Assembly: GCA_951406725.2 (NCBI GenBank) | Contig: OX597815.1 | Location: forward strand, 94,922,001-94,986,000 | Direction of reading: 5' to 3' | DNA: 64,000 nt | From: Octopus vulgaris | Lineage: Eukaryota | Shown here: piece by piece, positions 28,211 through 42,361 of the stretch | Layout of the letters: every line of letters begins with the position of its first letter | Position numbering within the stretch: the first letter of the stretch is position 1 | Translations under genes and position numbers: made by a program | Notes under the pieces: model-generated | The model's database searches: none | Told to the model about the DNA's origin: nothing | What the model saw: only the letters and a program-made list of their open reading frames with translations

Positions 28211-28559
<349 letters not shown>

Positions 28560-29592: not shown

Positions 29593-32510
29593 ATAGGTGT
29601 ACATGACTGCGCGCGTGTGTGCGCGCGCATGAATGTTCGTTTATGTTATATGTGTACGAGTGTATAAGAAATGAGAAGCACTTACTATCAATGATTCCAG
29701 CAAACGAAGGTTATTGGAAGAACTCCAAATATAAAACAATGCCCGATCTCTTGTTTTGTTCTCTTTACAGTAAAGTATGTGTCATTGTTTCTAAGTTGTT
29801 GATAATTGAATTTCCCGAAGAGGAGTTGGGAACCAGCGTATGATGTAAATTTAGTTCTCTCAGTGATATTCAATAAATAATTCCATATATAGAAATATAT
29901 TACTATAAAATAAAGAGCTAAGAATATCACAGGAATCTAAATAAAATTCATTGTGTTATAAACCTCAAAGGTTGCACTAAAATTGCCATACATTAAGGAA
30001 CGTGAAACGAAACAGAAATCTAACTTGCGTAACTGTGATTAAAAGAAAGCATAATTACATGTTTTTCTTTCCATTTTTAACAGTGTTTTATTAAAATCAA
30101 ATCAGTTATTGTGTTCAGTATCTAAACAGTAAATGAAATATTACTTTATTTCTTCATCATTAGTAATTAATCAAAAATGTTTCTGAAATTATATTAATAT
30201 AGTTTTATTTTAATTGTTTAATCGTATTGTCAGTAAAGATACAAGCTAAAATTTTGGCAACATTCCTCAGCTAGCACAATGAAAGATTTAACGCTTTTAA
30301 AACATTTTTTAAATTTCATCTTTGGCGAAATGGCAGAGTAATATTTCAATACTTCAACCTCTAACTCTATTTTACAAATCTAGTAATATGTTGGATTAAT
30401 TATAGACGTCAAATGGAAGCTTTTCATATAAGATTGAAAGCTTTTTTGTGCAATTCCTTCTTTTTAATATCGTGCTCGTTTCCCAGTGAATAGATGGTTC
30501 AACATCGAGATTGGTGAAGCATTCCATGTCATAAAACCACGACTACAAATATTCTCAACATAGACTTCCATACTTGATAATTTCATTTGAACATTTCATA
30601 TAACATCTGTAGTTATTTGGCAGAAGGTAAAATTTCAATTGATCTGAGATTTTGAAAGAAATAATGAAACACAATTTTGCAGAGTTCCAGAAATTGCTTT
30701 CTGCTATCAATAAATTGTATTCGATAGCTGAGACTCTCTGGTATAAATCTTGCTACAAATTCTAAATACATTTACGTGACATTTCTTAATACAATGCTTG
30801 TATTATCAAAGACATTTGGTCGTATATCTAAAATACATTATTTTGTACTTGTAGTAAAATCCCTTGATAATAAAATGATAATATATGTCAGATGAAGCCA
30901 TTATTCTGGCATTTATATAGATCTACAACGCAAAATGTTTTTTCTATCAGATATAATTAGTGCAGTTGTCATACATTCTTGATTTCAATGCGTCATCTAG
31001 ATACAGCAGATGTTTAATGTTCCTTCCAAGTGCATAATTATTATGAACCGTATCTGTATCATAGAGCTGAAATATCGATCTTTATTTGGAAAGAAAACAA
31101 TATTTACTCTCACGAATAAATAGTATTTGCAGTATTTTATGTAATTAATAAATTAATAAATTCAGCGGTGTTTTATATTAGGTAATAAAGCTCAAATTGT
31201 TTCTATGACAATGTGGTATTGGCTACATCATCGTAATCTAATTACTATATAATAACACCGTGAATATAAAACAATTTAAAAAATCTTCGACCTGCATTTG
31301 GTGTGTCTTATTTCTGACCACTCGGCAGTTACCACCTTTCGTGAATTCCACGAATGCACCTCACCCTGGCTTCCACACACATCCGGATCTGGTATGTTTA
31401 GTCTTTCAATCATCACTCAGCTAATTTAACGTCACAAATCATCATGCAATGCACAAATTCCGTCTCCTATATAAAGTGCACAAATCAGATGATTGATTAG
31501 ATTTTTGGTGGGTATTTGCTATCTTTTACAGGATGTGTGTTTTGTACTTAAACAATCACTACTGGAACCGTATTCTTAGACATGTGTTTCCATGTCTCAC
31601 AGAGAAGGAAAACTAACGTCCCCAGTGCCACAAGTAGTTCATTCATAGCTGCGCAGTAGGTTATCAAGCTATTAAGACTCTGGGCATCTTTTACTTAGCA
31701 ATGTTCTTCATAGAAAATAATAACCAAACCGTGGAGAATGACTGCGTGTATTGTAGACCGATAAGACCTTTTGCCTTTGAAACTGAAGCCTATTTTTATA
31801 TTATATTCCCCAAACAAAATCTAGCGACCTTGCGAAATGTTATCATTTCAGATCAAAACAATGATCATTTGTTGATATTACTTTCAGTTGAAAAACTCCA
31901 CACCTGCCGCTCGTTTTGCATCCACCGTCACATATAACATATTAAATAAACCTCAGGCAATGTTATCAAGTTCCATACTCATCACAATGCAAACTTTATA
32001 CACCATACTCATCACAATGTACACTTTATACATCAAGTAATATAGATCTTCCGACTGGTTCAAATGATCAACCTCAACAGCCTTCAGAATGTTCTGTCCA
32101 TTATTCTCAAAGAAAGCAAGATTTTGTCCCATTCACACCGGAGATTTTAATCTCTGTAAATAAATACATTTTGTTTCCAGTTTCAAAAGAGTGGAACATA
32201 TCGCTTACAAAATAATGAAAAAAATTAAGCTCTATTTTGAAAAATTAAGCTCTATTTTGAAATACTTTTGTTCATATATATGTTCATATATATTTTTTTA
32301 AAATAATACTAACATATATCATATACTTTCTTGTTCAGAAAGAATAAGTACATCTTACGACATTTTAAATGTTTGATTCTGAATCAAACTCTTGATAATG
32401 TGCGTATTTCATCACACACACACACGCACACACGCACACACACACACACATGCACACACACACACACACCACACACTACACATACACACATACACGCGTA
32501 TATATACCTA

Positions 32511-33717
32511 CTAGCAGCATAGCCCGGCGTTGCCCGAGTGCGTATATATACCTACTAGCAGCATAGCCTGGCGTTGCCCGGGTATGTAAGAGCCCCTAGT
32601 AGGCAACGACTAATCCCAATCTAGTCCTTTCCATCTAGGGAACGAAGGCGCATGTGTAGGTTGCAATGTCTTCTCTTCACTCCCGAATAACTATCAAACA
32701 GCTATCGATAATTCAACCCAACCAATTCCTACCAGGAAGAAATTACATTCGAGACTTTACCCCCAACACCGCCACTTCTGCTAATAGCTGCTGCAGCCGC
32801 AAGTTATTCGAATACTTTTTTTGTTTAAACTTTCTTTATAACTACCACCCCAAACGTTTTACCTTAAATTTTTGAGGTACCCTAAGGGTCCTCGGACGCT
32901 ACTTGCAAACTCTTGGTTTATTATAAACCGCTTTTGTCGTGTGCACCAAAAACCTTTTCCATTCGTTTGTTCAGTTGGGTCACGTCTGACTTTTTCGTTG
33001 TTGTCACTCACATTGCTGCCAGCTTTTTTGCCGTTTTTGTACATTTTTATACATTTTGGGATACTTACCCCACGTGTTCCGAGAGTTAAAAAGGTCGAGT
33101 TGCGTCCCCTAGACAGTCTGTGGTTTTGTGTTTAATACACAAATCGGTTTGCTATGTGTGCCACATATGATTTAATTAACCGATTTTTTCCAGTAATAAT
33201 GTATCCTATTGGAATAAAAAGGGCCATATAGCTCCTTGGAGCAGACATGATGCTCGCTGTGAATTTAAAAAAATTCCTGCCAATTTGTCGAAAATATTGT
33301 CGAAAATATGTCATCTTGAATTTGAACCCGATTTCCCAAAATAGCATGATTTTATCGATTTTTTCTGATGGTAAGGTATTGCATGGAAAACTACCGTCAG
33401 AATTAAGTTCCTTAGGGTAACATTAAGCTTCACCATGAGTTTAGTGAAAGTCGATTGCAAGTTGCGAAAACTACAACAGAAAATGTGTTGCATATAAAAA
33501 GCTTAGATTCTCGACCCCATGTCGAATTTTATCGATTGTTTTCAGAACTGGGGGAACTTTTCAAAATTTTCTCTGCGTTAGTTTTGAATTATGACATTGG
33601 ACTATGTGTGTGTGAAGTTTCATTAGAATCGGTTGAAAGCCGTGGTCAGGGTGAGGGTACAACCTGACAGACACACAGACACACAGACAGACAAACTGCC
33701 GTTTATATATATAGAGA
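32511..33717 (-). mobile_element. Non-autonomous Helitron (about 1.2 kb) with duplicated 3' terminus
   Basis: Minus strand A|TCTCTATATATATAAACGGCAG start; hairpin cccgggcaacgcc(a/g)gg plus CTAG|T ends at 32555 and 32511; shares 5' about 215 bp and an internal block (33080-33132) with 16972-17356. Confidence 0.85.
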
Positions 33718-34506
33718 TATATATAGTTATATATCTATATATATCTATCTCTATGATCATATACGCGTATATATCTAGAGAGGAGTATAAGAGAGAGACA
33801 GAGAGCGAGAGAGAGAGAGAAAGAGAGAGAGACTGAAATAATAAGTTATATTTAAGGTTAAAATACCTTAAAAACCACTACAAATTAAAAATTGGAATAG
33901 AATGAAAATTCGAGAACGCAAAACACATTCTGCACATTATTCTACATTCCAGTATATGTGGGAATATCACTTATGGATTAACACAAATAACTTTTAAAAT
34001 CTATATTATACCTCCTAATTTAATATCGAGATATAATTAGCATGTCCATTTAACAGAAATTATTCTTTTAACCAATACCGGGTTTCAGTCCTGATTATAA
34101 TAAGCTAAATAAGTTAACAATTTTTAGTTCATAATACTTAAATTATCATACATTTTCTATAAATTCTTGCTATTGAAATTAATAAGGTATGGATATTTTA
34201 TCATGGTTTTTAGTAATTAGGCTGTTTTTATTCCTTTTCTATGATGCTCTACCGTAACTGATCATTTGATTATTATTGTTATTATTATTTTATAGTAGCC
34301 TCAATAAATCTAATCTTTGTACCCCTATTAATTTGAGCTCAGCTTATATAAGGTAATACTAGTATCTCGACAACTTATATAACATATAAAAATATACTAT
34401 ATATAATATATATAATTGCATATACGTATATATATATAACAAATTAAAGAAGGAAAATGCACTCTCTACATAGTTTTCATATATTTAATATATTTTGTAT
34501 TGTGTC

Positions 34507-34539
34507 TGTCGACCGGTTTCGCTTTCGTTATTCATGACA
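34507..34539 (-). ncRNA. Minimal hammerhead variant (A3-U8) in inverted pLTR
   Basis: tgtc-ATGAATA-ac-gaaa-gc-GAAAC-cg-GTC-gaca. Confidence 0.7.
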
Positions 34540-34705
34540 TTAAAATTTATTGAAATACGCATTTTCTTATGAAGAGTTTTTTCTCCATGTTGCGTGTGGG
34601 GTTTATGAACGAACGACTCAACAATTAGAAGAATCTAAGTGGAGATAATTGGTCATCGCTATTATTGTGGACACGGGAGATAATTGTTCAGTTTTCGGCA
34701 GTGGG

Positions 34706-34760
<55 letters not shown>

Positions 34761-36986
34761 ATGTGTGTGTATACACACAATTGTTTTTTAAAAAGTGATG
34801 GGAGAAGTATATACAGTGATGGGTGTCTTTTTTAAACGTTCTTGTAAAGAAATTGTATCTTTGTACTGGTAGAAGGGGAAAACTGAAATTTGTTTTGATA
34901 TTACCTGCACAAATAAGAAATGCTAAAAGAAACCAACCTAGGGTTAGGAGTATTTTTTTCTCCCCACCAACTAGACACGTCGTAGAGACTTCCTTTATCT
35001 TTCGACGAGGAAACTGAGCCTAGGGATTCTCAACCTATTTACCCAGATAGCACAACCAACTCCCCAGCATCCCAAACATAATTGAGGACCTCAACAATTT
35101 ATTCCAACGAAGAAACCCGAACTGCTTACTTCCAACCAGCTTGCCAAGATAGCAAAATCAACCTTCCAGGAATTCCCGATATAATAAATAACAACAATAA
35201 TACTGATTTAATTAATAACAATAATGATCCTAATAACTTTCACCAACAAAATTACAGTAAACATTTTTAGACCGAATGGAAAGAAACAGGGGCACGCTTT
35301 GGAACAAAATTTACAGGAGAACCCCAAAGTAATAAATGTATAAACAAAAACTCTATCTGCAACAAAAATCAGTATACTAGCTAAAGGATTAAAGTTTATT
35401 CCAGCCCCCGAAGATCTAACCGTAATAAAACTAAAGACAATATTTCGGAATTCTGCAGAAAACTACGACTCGCAGAAGCAATAACTGACTACAACAATGA
35501 GTGATTGGTTAAAAACAGAAGTAATTACCTTCCACATAAAGGTAGGAATAAAACACTAGATGACGTCTGCGACCTTATCCAAAGCTTCCCATATACTTTC
35601 CATAAACGAAAAATTAATTCAAACCTCAACAATCTAGAATGGAAAAATCTAATTGAAACGACAAAGTCCTGACAATTAAAGAAGCAGACAAAGGAAGTGG
35701 TGTAGTTCTGATGGACACAGAATACTATTACTCATGCTAGAAAACGATACCTTCTACGAAATAGTTGTAAACTATAAACAGCAAAAAACAATAAAAAATC
35801 TTGCATCCTTAATACTTCTACATGGAAAAGTCCTGACACAAAAAGAAACACAACATCACGAACTTTAAATGTAAACCTAGTCTTTTTTACGGCCTACCTA
35901 AAATGCGCAAGAGCAAGATAATTAATGAAGCCTGCAAAGAATCACCAGGCAAATACATAAACATCCAAGCGCTTGAAGACTTAACGTTAAGGCCCATTAT
36001 AGCTGGCTGAATCTGTGAAACCCACTGCCCTCACTTATAGGCGATGTAATTAAGCGTGCCAAGAAATTAGACATAAAAACACTAAGGACAACAAAACATA
36101 ACACCACACCTCATCTCAAAACACTACTATATACATCCACCCACAGCCCTAGAAACAATGAGCGTACAACATTATTGTGCAAACTCTCCCATTACTAACT
36201 AGAGACCCAAAAATCAACAACATCCTGAAATCGCATAAACTCATCAAATGCAAAAAGCAACTCAAATCGCCAAAGAGACTTCTAACAAATGCGAAGCTTT
36301 ACGCAACAACCACGAAACCAACAGTTAAACAATGAGGACGCCCAAACTGTGGAACATGCCCCAACCTACTTGAAGGTGCGGATTTCCTTTTCACACAAGG
36401 AGAAAGGTTCACAATTAGAACTAACTTCACCAGTGCCCTTGAGAACCTGCTCGGGTTGTGGACATCACTATATAGGACAGACGAGTATGACATTGAGACG
36501 GAGAATCACTCTACATATAGAGCAGATCCGATTCCCGCAATACAGACAAATCCCTTATGTGAACACATAGAGAAATGTGTAGGTAACATCAAACCAAATT
36601 TCACAGTTTTCCCCTTCTACCAGTGCAAAGAGATAATTTCGTTACAAGAACGCTTAAATAAAGAAAATTTTTTCATCGAAACATGCAGAACACGTCTAAA
36701 TATACACGCATAATTAACTTTGATCTCTAAACATATTTTAATTCACGATTACAGAATCATCATTGTAACTATTTCTTCCCACCACTCTAGTTTTTGAATT
36801 TTTGCGTGTGTGTATATCCACCCCCTGCCGAAAACTGATCAATTATCTCCCCTGTCCACAAAAATAGCGATAAGCAATTACCTCCTCTTAGATTCTTCTA
36901 ATTGTTGAATTGTTCATCCATAAACCCCAGACACAACACGGACAAAAATACTATTCATAAGAAAATGCGTATTTAAAAAATTTTCA

Positions 36987-37019
36987 TGTCATGAATAGCG
37001 AAAGCGAAAGCGGTCAACA
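36987..37019 (+). ncRNA. Minimal hammerhead variant (A3-U8) in 3' pLTR
   Basis: tgtc-ATGAATA-gc-gaaa-gc-GAAAG-cg-GTC-aaca. Confidence 0.65.
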
Positions 37020-37090
37020 AACACAATACAAGATATGTTAAAAATTGGATGAAAACTATGTAAAGAATGTGCATGTTCCTTCTTTAATTT

Positions 37091-37143
<53 letters not shown>

Positions 37144-37151
37144 GTATGTCC

Positions 37152-37213
<62 letters not shown>

Positions 37214-37231
37214 CATATTTTTTATTTTTTA

Positions 37232-37572
37232 TTTTTTATATTTTTACGTGTTTCAGTCATTTGACTGCGGCCATGCTGGAGCACCGCCTTTAATCGAGCA
37301 ACTCGAACCCAGGACTTATTCTATCGGTCTCTTTTGCCGAACCGCTAAGTAACGGGAACGTAAACACACCAGCATCGGTTGTCAAGCAATGCTAGGGGGA
37401 CAAACACAGACACACACACATACATATACATATATACGACAGGTTTCTTTCAGTTTCCGTCTACCAAATCCACTCACAAGGCATTGATCGGCCCGGGGCT
37501 ATAGCAGAAGACACATGGCCAAGATGCCATGTGGTTGGTTAGCAAGCTACTTACCACACAGTCACTCCTGCG

Positions 37573-37574
<2 letters not shown>
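37232..37574 (-). mobile_element. tRNA-headed SINE, near full length, between (TA)n runs
   Basis: Minus strand ggcgcaggagtgactgtgtggtaagtagcttgc head, internal (TG)-rich segment, tail ggcggtgctccagcatggccgcagtcaaatgactgaaaca. Confidence 0.85.
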
Positions 37575-37631
<57 letters not shown>

Positions 37632-37634
37632 TTG

Positions 37635-37707
<73 letters not shown>

Positions 37708-37777
37708 GGCTCTTGATTTACATTGTGTATTTGTATTTATGTATTATGTAACTGATGTAGTCTATATATAATCTAGA

Positions 37778-38076
37778 TGGAACTCCATGGATTACGGCCA
37801 CGAGTGTTTCAGTTGATCCGGTCAACTTAACAACCTACTCATGAAATTAACACCACAGATATGCGTACCCTTAACGTTGTTCTCAGGGTGATTCAGCGTG
37901 GCACAAAATGTGGCAAGGCTCGCCACTGAAATATCGGTACTACTCATTTTTGCCAGCCTGAGTCAACTGGAGCAACGTTAAATAAGGTGTGTTGCCCAAA
38001 CGCGCAACAGGGAATCGAACTCACGACCATAGGATTTGAGTAAAATCCCCCTAAGCAGTAAGTCACGTGCCTTCAC
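37778..38076 (-). mobile_element. tRNA-headed SINE of a third family
   Basis: Minus strand head with B-box gagttcgattccc followed by ttgggcaacacacct (CORE-like). Confidence 0.7.
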
Positions 38077-38079
38077 TTA

Positions 38080-38245
38080 GTGGCATTTCTTCCGGCTTTA
38101 CATTCTTTGCCAAAATTACAGCAAGATCGACCTCGCCTGTCCTCCCTTCAACGTCAATGGAATAAATGCCAGCCAAACACTTCGGTCGATATAATCGACG
38201 AGCAACCCTGTCTTCCTAAAAGTCAAGTCTTGTCCTTATATTTAC
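38080..38245 (+). mobile_element. Degenerate SINE (family of 4152-4360)
   Basis: tggcatttcttccggcttt...ggtcgatataatcgac colinear with 4190-4350. Confidence 0.5.
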
Positions 38246-39145
38246 AAAGAAAAATGTTTCCTACTCTTTTCTTTTGTTTTACTTTATATTTATGTCGCTA
38301 TGACGCTAAATGCATTCGTTTCAACACACGGCAATAAGTTGCTTTGTTTATAACCTCCAATTTAGTTAACCAAGTCTATCAAACTGAATATTTCAGTTAT
38401 TACAACTTTAAATATATATTCATTTCTTGACAAATCCATACCTTGATCGTTAATTATTTATCTTGGACCAGTAACTCGAACGTTCGGTATGGGATATTCC
38501 TATTGTATAGAAAAAATTAACACTTTCCTGATTTACGTTTAGAACACTAAAAAGAAATTTTTTTAGCTGTATGCTACTTTTACACGTATTAATTTTTACC
38601 TGTCACCTAATAAATGTAATCAAACCTTCACAGCAATAGCCACTTACTTATAACTAACTTCCACAAATAAACAGATTAAACATATTGACCTTATGTAACT
38701 TTTTAACTTCTATTCATAGTCACAGTTTTTGATAAAAGCGTTACCTTATAATTAGCATACACACATTACAACATGAAACATGCAGGTTCTTCCAAAATAT
38801 GATAGATATTTTGATAACATAGAATTAAATTTCTTTAATAATTCATTGCCAGAGAAAATGTGTTTGAACAATTCCTCTCGAAATATTCGTTTGATTTTCA
38901 AAATTTCCGTACATATGTACACTAATTTCCTAATTGGAACAATCAATAATATTTACTGACGCATCTAGATATTTCATCGTGTATTCTCATCCAGTAAGTT
39001 CTAACAGCAATTTAGAATCACATCTAAGGTTGAAAACTTTATTCTACCTTATATTATATTTTTATATACCTTGTATTTTCCGTTCGTATAATGTTTGTTT
39101 CAGTTGGCGTCCGTCTTTTTCAAATGTGTCAGTACACACATGCTA

Positions 39146-39229
<84 letters not shown>

Positions 39230-40067
39230 CAAACAATATTTCTATTTCGTTTCCTTTTCTAATATATACATAATATATCATGACTTAACCACCTGCAGAT
39301 TTAACATAGGTCTTATCTTATGAATCCGATGAAATTCTTCCTCCCAAAATTAGTCTGTAACATATATACATAGGTACACACGCACACGCATACACACACG
39401 CATATATATATATATATATATAACTTTCAGTCTTTCATTGTTACTCTCTGTGTGTATATCTGCTTGTATATGTATGCATATATTTTCATATATATATTTA
39501 TATATGTATATATAAATACGTACACATGCATCACACGTGAGCGTGCATGCGCACATAAATTCGCATTTTTATTCGCTATTTCCAGTAGGTAATTAATATT
39601 GTATTATAAACTAACAATAATTATCAGGCGCAGTTACATTTGACTCAGATACGTAACCACAACGATTTCCTGCCTTATTCCTTATTATCTAGGTAATTTA
39701 AATGAGAAGCAAACTATACGTTTATATAAATATATATATTAGACTTTCTATATAACATCTTGTAATACGACATATTTGGCTCTAATTCATAACTAAATGT
39801 TTTCGGCAAATCCTTATCTTATTTTGTCAACCTTAAGCCGATCTGTAAAAGCAGCTCTATCTTTATTTCTGCATTGAATCGTAAAAGGGCAAAGCCTAGA
39901 ATTACTGTATCTAGTTCCATGACCATGTACATACAACATAATTCATACGTTTCAGGTCTATTTGTTCGCTTCTAATTCTCTACACCTACGAGAAAAAGAA
40001 TAATGTATAAAGCATATATATAATTACATAAATGTATCCCTATACATACATATATCTACGTATATAT

Positions 40068-40136
<69 letters not shown>

Positions 40137-42361
40137 ACTCAATTTCAAAACTCCGTATTCCAGTCTGATCACTGCTGAAAGCTACGCACACACACACACA
40201 CACACACGCACGCGCGCACGCACACACACATACACACCACACATATATGTATGTATTGCTTAATGAACAGAATATATATTTTTCATGAGCTACCAATAGC
40301 ACATTTCCTTGGAACAAATAAGTATTATAAATTTTTCAAACCCCACTTCGCCAAAGTCAGTTACTCCTTCTAACAAAACATCGTTTTTAACGTCGCATGC
40401 TACAATAGATGCTAGCACACATCTAAACAGCCTCTAGTATACCCCCAACCTGTAGCGGTCGAAAACATATCAACTGATCACTTGGAGGATCGTGTTTCTC
40501 AAATGCTGTAGGTTATAAAGCAACCATCACACCAGCCAATGGCATTATAGATACTGCAGGTGCATAACAGGCAATGATTTGAATGTGAAGGCATGCAAAA
40601 CATATGCAATTCTTCAGGTGCAGAAACAGGGGAAAGCTTACCTCCCTTTTTCGTTTTTGAAGAGAATTCACGGCCATCGGAATAAGTTCTCAACATCAAA
40701 TAGAGTATCATTGATAGGACCCCTTCATCATCACCTTGAACTCGCAATTACCAAACTGCAGTATCTCTCAAACAGGAGGAATGTACTCTCTTGTTGCCAC
40801 CAGAGGTATGGCCTACTGATGAACTTCAATCCACTAGCAGCTGACAATCCAGGTATCCAACTGACGTCTTACTGCCACATACACAAGAGCATAGCTCAAT
40901 TCCAGCAGCATCTATAGACTATGGCTCCATCCATCCTGATAATCAAATCTAGTACTATGAAATTTTAATACAGCAGCACCCAAACTGGTTACTCCCAGGA
41001 AAGTCTGTTGTCCTTTACGCATTAGTATTTCTCTAACAATAGACAACATTTCCCCCTGCCATGTGGAGCACCAAATGCTACTTATGTTACTAAATAAACT
41101 ATACCCTAACTTCCAGATTGTGACGACATCTCAGACCACGTGAACCTAAGAACAAAGAATATAATTGGTGTCGCTTCCAGAGCAAAATAACAGAATAACT
41201 GAGTTGGTAAATAATGGCTTAATATCTAAAAGCCGTCTTGGAATTGCCTCATGTCCTGTTACACTTTCTATATGCACAAGTTGCGTTCATTCTACAAACC
41301 TACACAATTTTAAGTTGTACGGATCTGAGTCAAAATGCTATTAATAACATAAGTCCTTTTAAATGTCCTGAGTGTTTCTTTCTTCTGTTTGGCAAACTTA
41401 TGCCATAGGGTATTTGCACGTTGTAAAAGAAATGCTTTGAGAAACAAATCAAGGAAGCTGATGTCAAGAAATGGGTAATTTACTGCGCAGTGTACTGAAA
41501 CAGTCAAATGCACAATAAAATCTTAATCTATTGAAATTTATGTCATGTGAGTTACTCAATGCGAAGAGAATTAGGTTTAATTCACCAAGAACAAATTCTC
41601 ACCTGAATGCACGTAGTACGGAGAAAAGAATTAAAATTGTGCAAAACTAAGCAGATATAAAACACTGAAATACATATAATTCTCTTTTGCTGGTACAAAA
41701 GATCTGACGATTCTTTCCCTAACATTAACTTAATTCTAGAATATCCTACATGAACATTTTTTCATTTAATTATTGAAATCCCTGAAATTGCACTTTATGT
41801 CGCTTTCCTACCTTGTACATTCACATGAAAATTCATTTTTAATTTAGTGAAATTATCTACATTTCTCCTTGTGAGTAAATTTCATTCACAGGCAAATTAA
41901 AAAAAAAGCACAAAACAAATTCATTCTGTATGGCATTCAGTAACGCTCACTTCGAATGAAGTCTCTATCATTTTTTATATATTTCTCTTAGCTCTTTTTA
42001 TTTTGCATTATACAAATAGTAGTCGGCAAAAATTTGCCAGATTTTGAATCGGGAATGGGACATATTTTCTGCAAGCATGGTGGGACTGCATTCTACTAAC
42101 GCTGCAGATTAGACAGAAATATGTAAATATTTCTCCTATGATTTCAGAAAGGATTAGGCTACCTCATGACTTGCATGAAAATTGACTGAAGGATTTAATT
42201 TTTATTTCTTGAAATTATTTTCCTTCGACCTTCAATGTAGCTAATAATTGCTTCTTGTTTTGACTTGCTGTCTCCAAGACAGAGAAGAATTTTCAAAAAT
42301 GAAGACTTTGCACTTCAACCGGTAATTCCGTATATACCCTTTAATGTACAAACACACGCAC

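Follow-up and report, generated by a model that had tools for sequence, protein, structure and literature searches.

The pLTR hammerhead of a Penelope-like element (PLE) family in the Octopus vulgaris genome carries A-U in place of C-G at core positions 3 and 8. Its intact copies, which are predicted to fold as dimers, probably cut slowly after GUC, under selection that keeps the 3-8 pair while letting its identity drift. Sequence comparisons make a strong case, extending well beyond the locus studied here, that positions 3 and 8 are maintained as a pair. An earlier note on this DNA had proposed a natural compensated variant, and comparison supports the proposal well: A3-U8 is family-wide, homologous motifs in outgroup elements (loci L117 and L130) have C3-G8, and sister families swap both positions together. 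Repeated joint changes of this kind are comparative evidence that catalytic geometry constrains these tiny motifs during retrotransposition. Coordinates below refer to the window, the whole 64,000-nucleotide stretch of O. vulgaris DNA that was analysed.

Two hammerheads in a dead Penelope-like element

Judged by its linker, inner cysteines and (TA)n ends, the window element is a dead, RT-deleted PLE copy of the Neptune type, an assignment based on these features, with protein trees that contained no named Neptune reference elements. Its parts are as follows.

34391..34712, minus strand: left arm, an inverted pLTR copy (3' end of a 5'-truncated inverted unit); blastn 86% to 36812-37138
34507..34539, minus strand: minimal hammerhead of the left arm, A3 at 34535 and U8 at 34530, from family comparison
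between 34511 and 34510, minus strand: predicted cut site of the left-arm hammerhead
34708..34779: (TA)n/(TG)n microsatellite within the inverted unit
34825..34910, minus strand: inverted copy of the end of the endonuclease region, in the same inverted unit as the left arm; blastn 88% to 36575-36663, and tblastn
35317..36025, plus strand: broken N-terminal region and RT start, with stops and frameshifts; tblastn with P0003 and the L100 protein
36028..36713, plus strand: broken thumb, C-x4-C-x2-C linker and GIY-YIG region; tblastn 66-71% to L100 residues 398-631, and the ORF list
36812..37091, plus strand: right pLTR, without the optional ~55-nt tail of other copies
36987..37019, plus strand: minimal hammerhead of the right arm, A3 at 36991 and U8 at 36996, ~280 nt 3' of the ORF end
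after 37015, plus strand: predicted cut site of the right-arm hammerhead
37092..37218: (TA)n tract at the element 3' end, the usual target of this element type

The window copy lacks the RT core with YLDD (residues 127-397 of L100), deleted just before 36028. L100 is a younger family copy with a 631-aa open frame that joins RT with a GIY-YIG at the C terminus in one frame; its GIY-YIG scores above the Pfam cut-off and its RVT_1 match (E=1e-6, 28.9 bits) just under the cut-off of 29.6. The endonuclease fragment of the window gave no Pfam match, and no relatives of the element were found on viral contigs. In the protein alignment, L100 has a C-x4-C-x2-C linker and a C-x2-C inside GIY-YIG; a C-x2-5-C-x2-C linker with cysteines within GIY-YIG is given as a mark of Neptune-type elements (PMC8557442). 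The Neptune EN+ PLEs of Craig et al. (2021, PMC8557442) likewise have RT followed by a cysteine linker and GIY-YIG with inner cysteines, and they share the pLTR, the inverted truncated copy and the TA targets. In that work the hammerheads are called canonical and the searches used cuganga strings, whereas the window family has A3-U8. By blastn the two arms match at 86%, as inverted duplicates of a single element, and so represent one lineage, as the earlier note had cautioned; each arm is ~87% identical to its subfamily majority, so this is one old insertion.

Both arms hold the 33-nt motif that had been read from the window alone. The left-arm copy has helix I UGUC/GACA, core AUGAAUA and intact ACCGGU and GUC, and its lesion (G10.1>A at 34528) disrupts G10.1-C11.1, a conserved pair. 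Stem II is intact in the right-arm copy, which carries C15.2>G at 37010, with loss of the palindrome, and G1.1>A at 37016, with loss of the first helix I pair. The lesions thus fall at different positions in the two arms, as previously described, and since each strikes a conserved element neither window copy should be active; both are damaged and likely inactive. The core residues U4, G5, A6, A9, G12, A13 and A14, the A15.1-U16.1 pair and H17 are present in both arms and in the family majorities. G10.1-C11.1 and a palindromic helix III also belong to the family majority, the left arm being without the first and the right arm without the second. The perfect 33-mer put forward as consensus is real, occurring unchanged in four distinct copies among the fetched loci. 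Stem II had been described as GNRA-capped: the GAAA cap is seen here, and it is not a family trait in that form, younger subfamilies having GAUA or GAUU.

Unlike the PLE hammerheads of Cervera and De la Pena (2014, PMC4209133), whose published consensus has an extra base after A9 and a long helix II, those of the window family have no extra base and a stem II of only 2 bp. Rfam gave no hammerhead match in window positions 30000-42000 or on an intact family copy. A canonical C3-G8 outgroup hammerhead scores only E=6.2, which indicates that Rfam is blind to the whole size class and not just to the A3-U8 core.

A3-U8 as the family state

A family search pattern, N3-UGA-N-N8-A-GCGAAAGCGAAA, which leaves positions 3, 7 and 8 free and fixes the window's stem II, has 337 exact matches in the genome against 1, 0 and 0 for reversed control patterns, so the motif is not a product of chance. 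A3-U8 is found in 294 of the 337 and C3-G8 in none. The other 43 comprise 16 with A3 and a different base at 8 and 27 without A3 (10 G·U, eight C·U, six U·U and three others); in a flank-cluster sample deliberately enriched for 3/8 exceptions, they are scattered over several clusters, as decay after insertion would give. Tabulated genome-wide in this way, A3-U8 is not private to the locus and the family consensus is not CUGANGA. In a motif-independent sample, consisting of the 30 best protein-search loci (150 of 11,063 candidates were scored), the motif is kept in 28, with A3-U8 in 27 and A3-C8 in one, and the pLTR is lost in two. Across four subfamilies with 78-92% masked-flank identity the core is constant and helix I covaries (GUC/GAC versus AUC/GAU), while position 7 and loop II vary among subfamilies that share the A3-U8 core. 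Contigs from four public runs of three organisms, used as contigs only, have 3 and 8 unchanged at the 5% level, with variation in loop II and helix I.

Since every copy inherits the mutations of its founder, a high copy count is no proof by itself, and these numbers would also fit a dead ribozyme in which two unrelated founder mutations are complementary by accident, or in which A3 is kept as part of a start codon, A3-U4-G5 reading AUG. We regard this explanation as very improbable. The rest of the motif is intact across subfamilies 8-22% apart in their flanks, A3-U8 arose twice here and once more in the distant L147, families with G-C and U-A exist, and no mismatch family was seen. A dead ribozyme is already largely refuted by such repeated joint changes. 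The start codon was rejected on its own account: a frame opened at A3 stops after 16-18 codons, is not conserved and leaves U8 unexplained.

Hammerheads of outgroup elements

An alignment of protein relatives led to 86 loci outside the family, the closest outside proteins (P0001-P0015) being without DNA context. A scan of these loci that left 3 and 8 free yielded 17 motifs, spread over 16 loci and in every case on the element strand; the opposite strand of the 86 loci gave none, and 70 of the loci were without any motif. Twelve of the 17 motifs have C-G, three U-A, one A-U (L147) and one G-C, with no mismatches. L117 and L130 (41-46% protein identity) combine C3-G8 with a 2-bp stem II, no extra base and ACCGGU, and their hammerheads sit 88-117 nt after the ORF; in L117, at 46% identity, the motif occurs in both direct pLTRs. 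The A3-U8 motif of L147 lies 82 nt after its frame. Distant PLEs on metagenome contigs (L147:1969, L171:117, L145, L169 and L195) have A3-U8, G3-C8 or U3-A8 cores, so such swaps are met again well beyond this genome.

L117 also has a separate 434-codon open frame (L117:71-1375) between its 5' pLTR and its RT frame. PLE proteins further occur in bacterial MAGs or under symbiont names (L197-L202), probably as host DNA in these assemblies.

A radiation of 3-8 pairs within the genome

A search pattern shared by all pairs (core, G...C stem, GAAACCGGT) matches the genome 5,463 times with U3-A8 (control 1), 1,225 times with A3-U8 (control 3), 117 times with G3-C8 (control 2) and 111 times with C3-G8 (control 1), counts that leave out the A3/non-U8 and C3/U8 cells. 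C3-G8 therefore makes up 111 of 6,916 Watson-Crick matches of this class, which bears out the expectation that CUGANGA-based searches miss such variants, here most of the class. Matches with neither A3 nor U8 total 6,047 (control 17), 356 of them being other combinations in that quadrant, and 303 matches (control 14) have G or U at both positions. A hand count of the first 100 of these gave 81 U·G, eight U·U, six G·U and five G·G, and about 62 of the 100 belong to one young U3·G8 subfamily.

Clustering of 303 fetched motifs on their flanks alone yielded 13 group majorities (five A-U, four U-A, two G-C, one C-G and one U·G), most loci having been gathered by patterns in which the remaining core letters, and frequently one preset 3/8 pair, were fixed. 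No mismatch family at 3-8 occurs among these 13 majorities or the 17 outgroup motifs, and position 17 is C, A or U in 13 of 13. An A3-U8 and a G3-C8 subfamily have flanks that are 94% identical, and a 359-bp tandem non-coding repeat exists in a C3-G8 and a U3-A8 form whose flanks are 87% identical; such near-identical natural frames differing at 3-8 are suited to a clean rate comparison. When three contig runs were compared with the G-C copy L313, the unphased shares of G3>A and C8>U were 35 and 41%, 81 and 77%, and 89 and 89%, a fourth run not covering the core.

The 359-bp repeat (L266-L294, for example L270:451-2469, and L346-L348) carries a hammerhead in each unit and is retrozyme-like. 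The G3-C8 families (L295-L323 and L343) are tied to PLE endonuclease and RT fragments, mostly have a GUA cut triplet and include copies that lie clustered on C17 near 67-69 Mb. Three further patterns were set aside. A3-U8 in one arm of a U3-A8 insertion (L240/L217p) and a single C3-G8 match inside a U3-A8 family are each a probable chance double change among thousands of copies. Avoidance of a 3-17 pair was suggested by A3 families never having U17 and G3 families never having C17, but the largest U3 family has A17.

Protein trees were built from stitched fragments, with 82 rows in the first, left after removal of 20 rows of the main family and of every row with <115 residues in its C-terminal half, and 43 in the second (40 picked from the 82, plus three U·G copies). 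L033, a lone C·U copy, was coded A-U like its family. The families of this genome group in a single clade that excludes the C3-G8 outgroups, and the 3-8 state changes at least six times on the tree. The second A3-U8 subfamily nests among G3-C8 copies, an arrangement with which the flanks agree, and a grouping of all A3-U8 rows is rejected (p-AU 1.9e-12), with the tested groups defined in view of the first tree and only 25% of the columns filled in the two nested rows. By these trees, A3-U8 arose at least twice in this genome. A single purine3-pyrimidine8 clade is not rejected (p 0.095), so that a single switch of Y3-R8 to R3-Y8 with later transitions may be enough. The young U·G subfamily, in turn, shows that a wobble stage can spread.

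This U3·G8 subfamily (L364-L391, for example L381, L384 and L374) is very young, with end branches of 0.004-0.011, and a base is missing at its first helix I pair, so that it offers a natural test of how far the motif may be weakened. In the majority sequences of this subfamily and of its U3-A8 sister that pair is absent. These two families warn that selection can slacken and that weakened motifs still spread in some lineages.

Predicted dimer folding and probable cleavage

In fold predictions on short fragments, an intact copy cofolded with itself has the double-hammerhead secondary structure as its minimum, with a helix I of 4 bp, a stem II of 2 bp and an inter-strand ACCGGU helix III at 0.97; in the predicted monomer A15.1-U16.1 is not formed. 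The inter-strand helix III reaches at least 0.77 in 14 of 19 folded sequences and is low in the right arm, the left arm, L095, L209 and L266. For some intact copies (L022, L095 and L266) the double hammerhead was not the minimum in cofolding.

We propose that in a tandem (pLTR-ORF-pLTR) transcript the two motifs would pair through the ACCGGU palindrome, probably aided by the element's protein, and that cutting would free unit-length RNA or permit a circle. Reverse transcription would then begin downstream of an uncut or rejoined motif. Selection would demand a 3-8 pair and be loose on its identity, and the pair would drift, via wobble intermediates where possible, toward A/U pairs in an AT-rich genome. 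Family copies run into (TA)n at one of two alternative ends ~55 nt apart, which is the PLE tail pattern, and these 3' ends lie 65 and 120 nt past the predicted cut, so that all copies extend beyond the cut site. The PLE hammerhead of Anolis Poseidon (PAc) is comparable in that it lies upstream of the start sites of reverse transcription and has two 3' ends with an optional tail (PMC11167929).

The 3-8 pair belongs to the active hammerhead conformation (PMC3884650), and its retention through repeated joint swaps points to catalysis. That the A3-U8 motif cuts in vivo is a likely reading of the comparative data, counting the case in which cleavage is tuned. A result that counts against it comes from a screen of a type III hammerhead, in which only the G-C swap rescued activity and other 3/8 double mutants were low (PMC9901934). 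The 2-bp stem II, the intact copies without the double-hammerhead minimum and the Anolis findings that insertion in vitro does not need the hammerhead and that no RNA reads end at its cut site (PMC11167929) weigh in the same direction. A role without cutting (protein binding, RNA dimerisation or packaging) could also keep the fold, with A3-U8 having lost cleavage at any useful rate. Minimal hammerheads of PLEs are poor cleavers in vitro, and their authors allow for other functions (PMC4209133), cleavage is dispensable for insertion in vitro (PMC11167929), and weakened motifs persist in the young subfamily. Such a role is nonetheless decidedly unlikely in our estimate: the pair kept through the swaps is one of the active conformation (PMC3884650), and position 17 is C, A or U in every family majority.

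The earlier note had also suggested a slowed or tuned ribozyme. This is a guess, neutral drift between pairs explaining the pattern equally; tuning is possible and drift more likely. In one form of the idea, slow non-canonical pairs are favoured as a brake that leaves the 3' motif uncut until downstream reverse transcription starts, and non-coding tandem repeats, which would need fast cutting, keep C-G. It draws on the C3-G8 matches of the ACCGGU class, which come mostly from the 359-bp repeat, coding families having U-A, A-U, G-C or U·G; on the extension of all copies past the cut site; and on reports that swapped pairs are only partly active (PMC11167929, PMC9901934). The 359-bp repeat family also has a U3-A8 subfamily, however, outgroup coding PLEs do well with C3-G8, and AT-biased drift yields the same picture, so we hold such a brake to be quite unlikely. 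In a bolder form the pair would serve as a rate dial: coding lineages would have moved among U-A, G-C, A-U (twice) and U·G for slow cleavage, reverse transcription then starting downstream of the motif, and tandem non-coding derivatives would have returned to the fast C-G. This is unlikely too; if true, a natural allelic series of a ribozyme active-site pair would be present in full in this genome, under in vivo selection.

Relation to known hammerheads

Swapped 3-8 pairs have been described before, both engineered and natural. In the laboratory, A3-U8 has reportedly been made by Przybilski and Hammann in 2007 and by Nelson and Uhlenbeck in 2008; any Watson-Crick 3-8 pair is said to have kept some activity, at context-dependent rates, in mutants that were reportedly of full-size ribozymes and not natural minimal ones. 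Natural U3-A8 hammerheads are known (Perreault et al., 2011, PMC3088659), and that work thus shares natural 3-8 covariation with ours; in the part of it available, only U3-A8 is named and the motifs are not PLE-borne minimal ones.

Minimal type I hammerheads, with weak dimer cleavage, are described in the pLTRs of animal PLEs, and the Cercyon elements of Schistosoma are a U3-A8 family (PMC4209133). U3-A8 is thus already in print, in PLEs too, which lowers the surprise of A3-U8. The window family resembles these hammerheads in its pLTR location, short helix I, G10.1-C11.1 and palindromic helix III for dimer folding, in the occurrence of motifs in inverted pairs, and in the covarying 3-8 pair of one of their families (PMC4209133). 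It differs from them in having purine 3 and pyrimidine 8 (A-U, and G-C in sister families) and in belonging to one radiation with all four Watson-Crick pairs and a wobble. Natural A3-U8 was not found in the literature searched, which covers hammerhead variants incompletely and includes PMC4209133 in part, and the available part of PMC13282606 does not mention ribozymes. The gain is moderate, since the 3-8 pair itself and one natural swap were already known.

A further comparison is PAc, which needs protein for hammerhead cleavage and in which single mutants at 3 or 8 are dead and an engineered G3-C8 double mutant partly restores cutting (Frangieh-type study, PMC11167929). PAc has the canonical C3-G8 and was assayed, whereas the swapped pairs described here are natural and known from sequence alone. 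In the same study no RNA reads were seen to end at the cut site (PMC11167929). The function of PLE hammerheads has been called unclear, possibly just riding along (PMC8557442), and tandem retrozymes have been linked to pLTRs (bioRxiv 10.64898/2026.07.22.740005).

Other repeats and signals

Another abundant repeat is inserted in copies of the window family (L093:1281 and L114, minus strand) and carries a canonical minimal hammerhead with an extra base after A9 and an ACGU helix III. In the youngest subfamily (for example L088 and L100) a GTAAGT resembling a splice donor is conserved ~30 nt past the cut; 5' introns are known from PLEs. Elsewhere in the window, positions 28324-28559 hold nested near-perfect inverted repeats around TA tracts.
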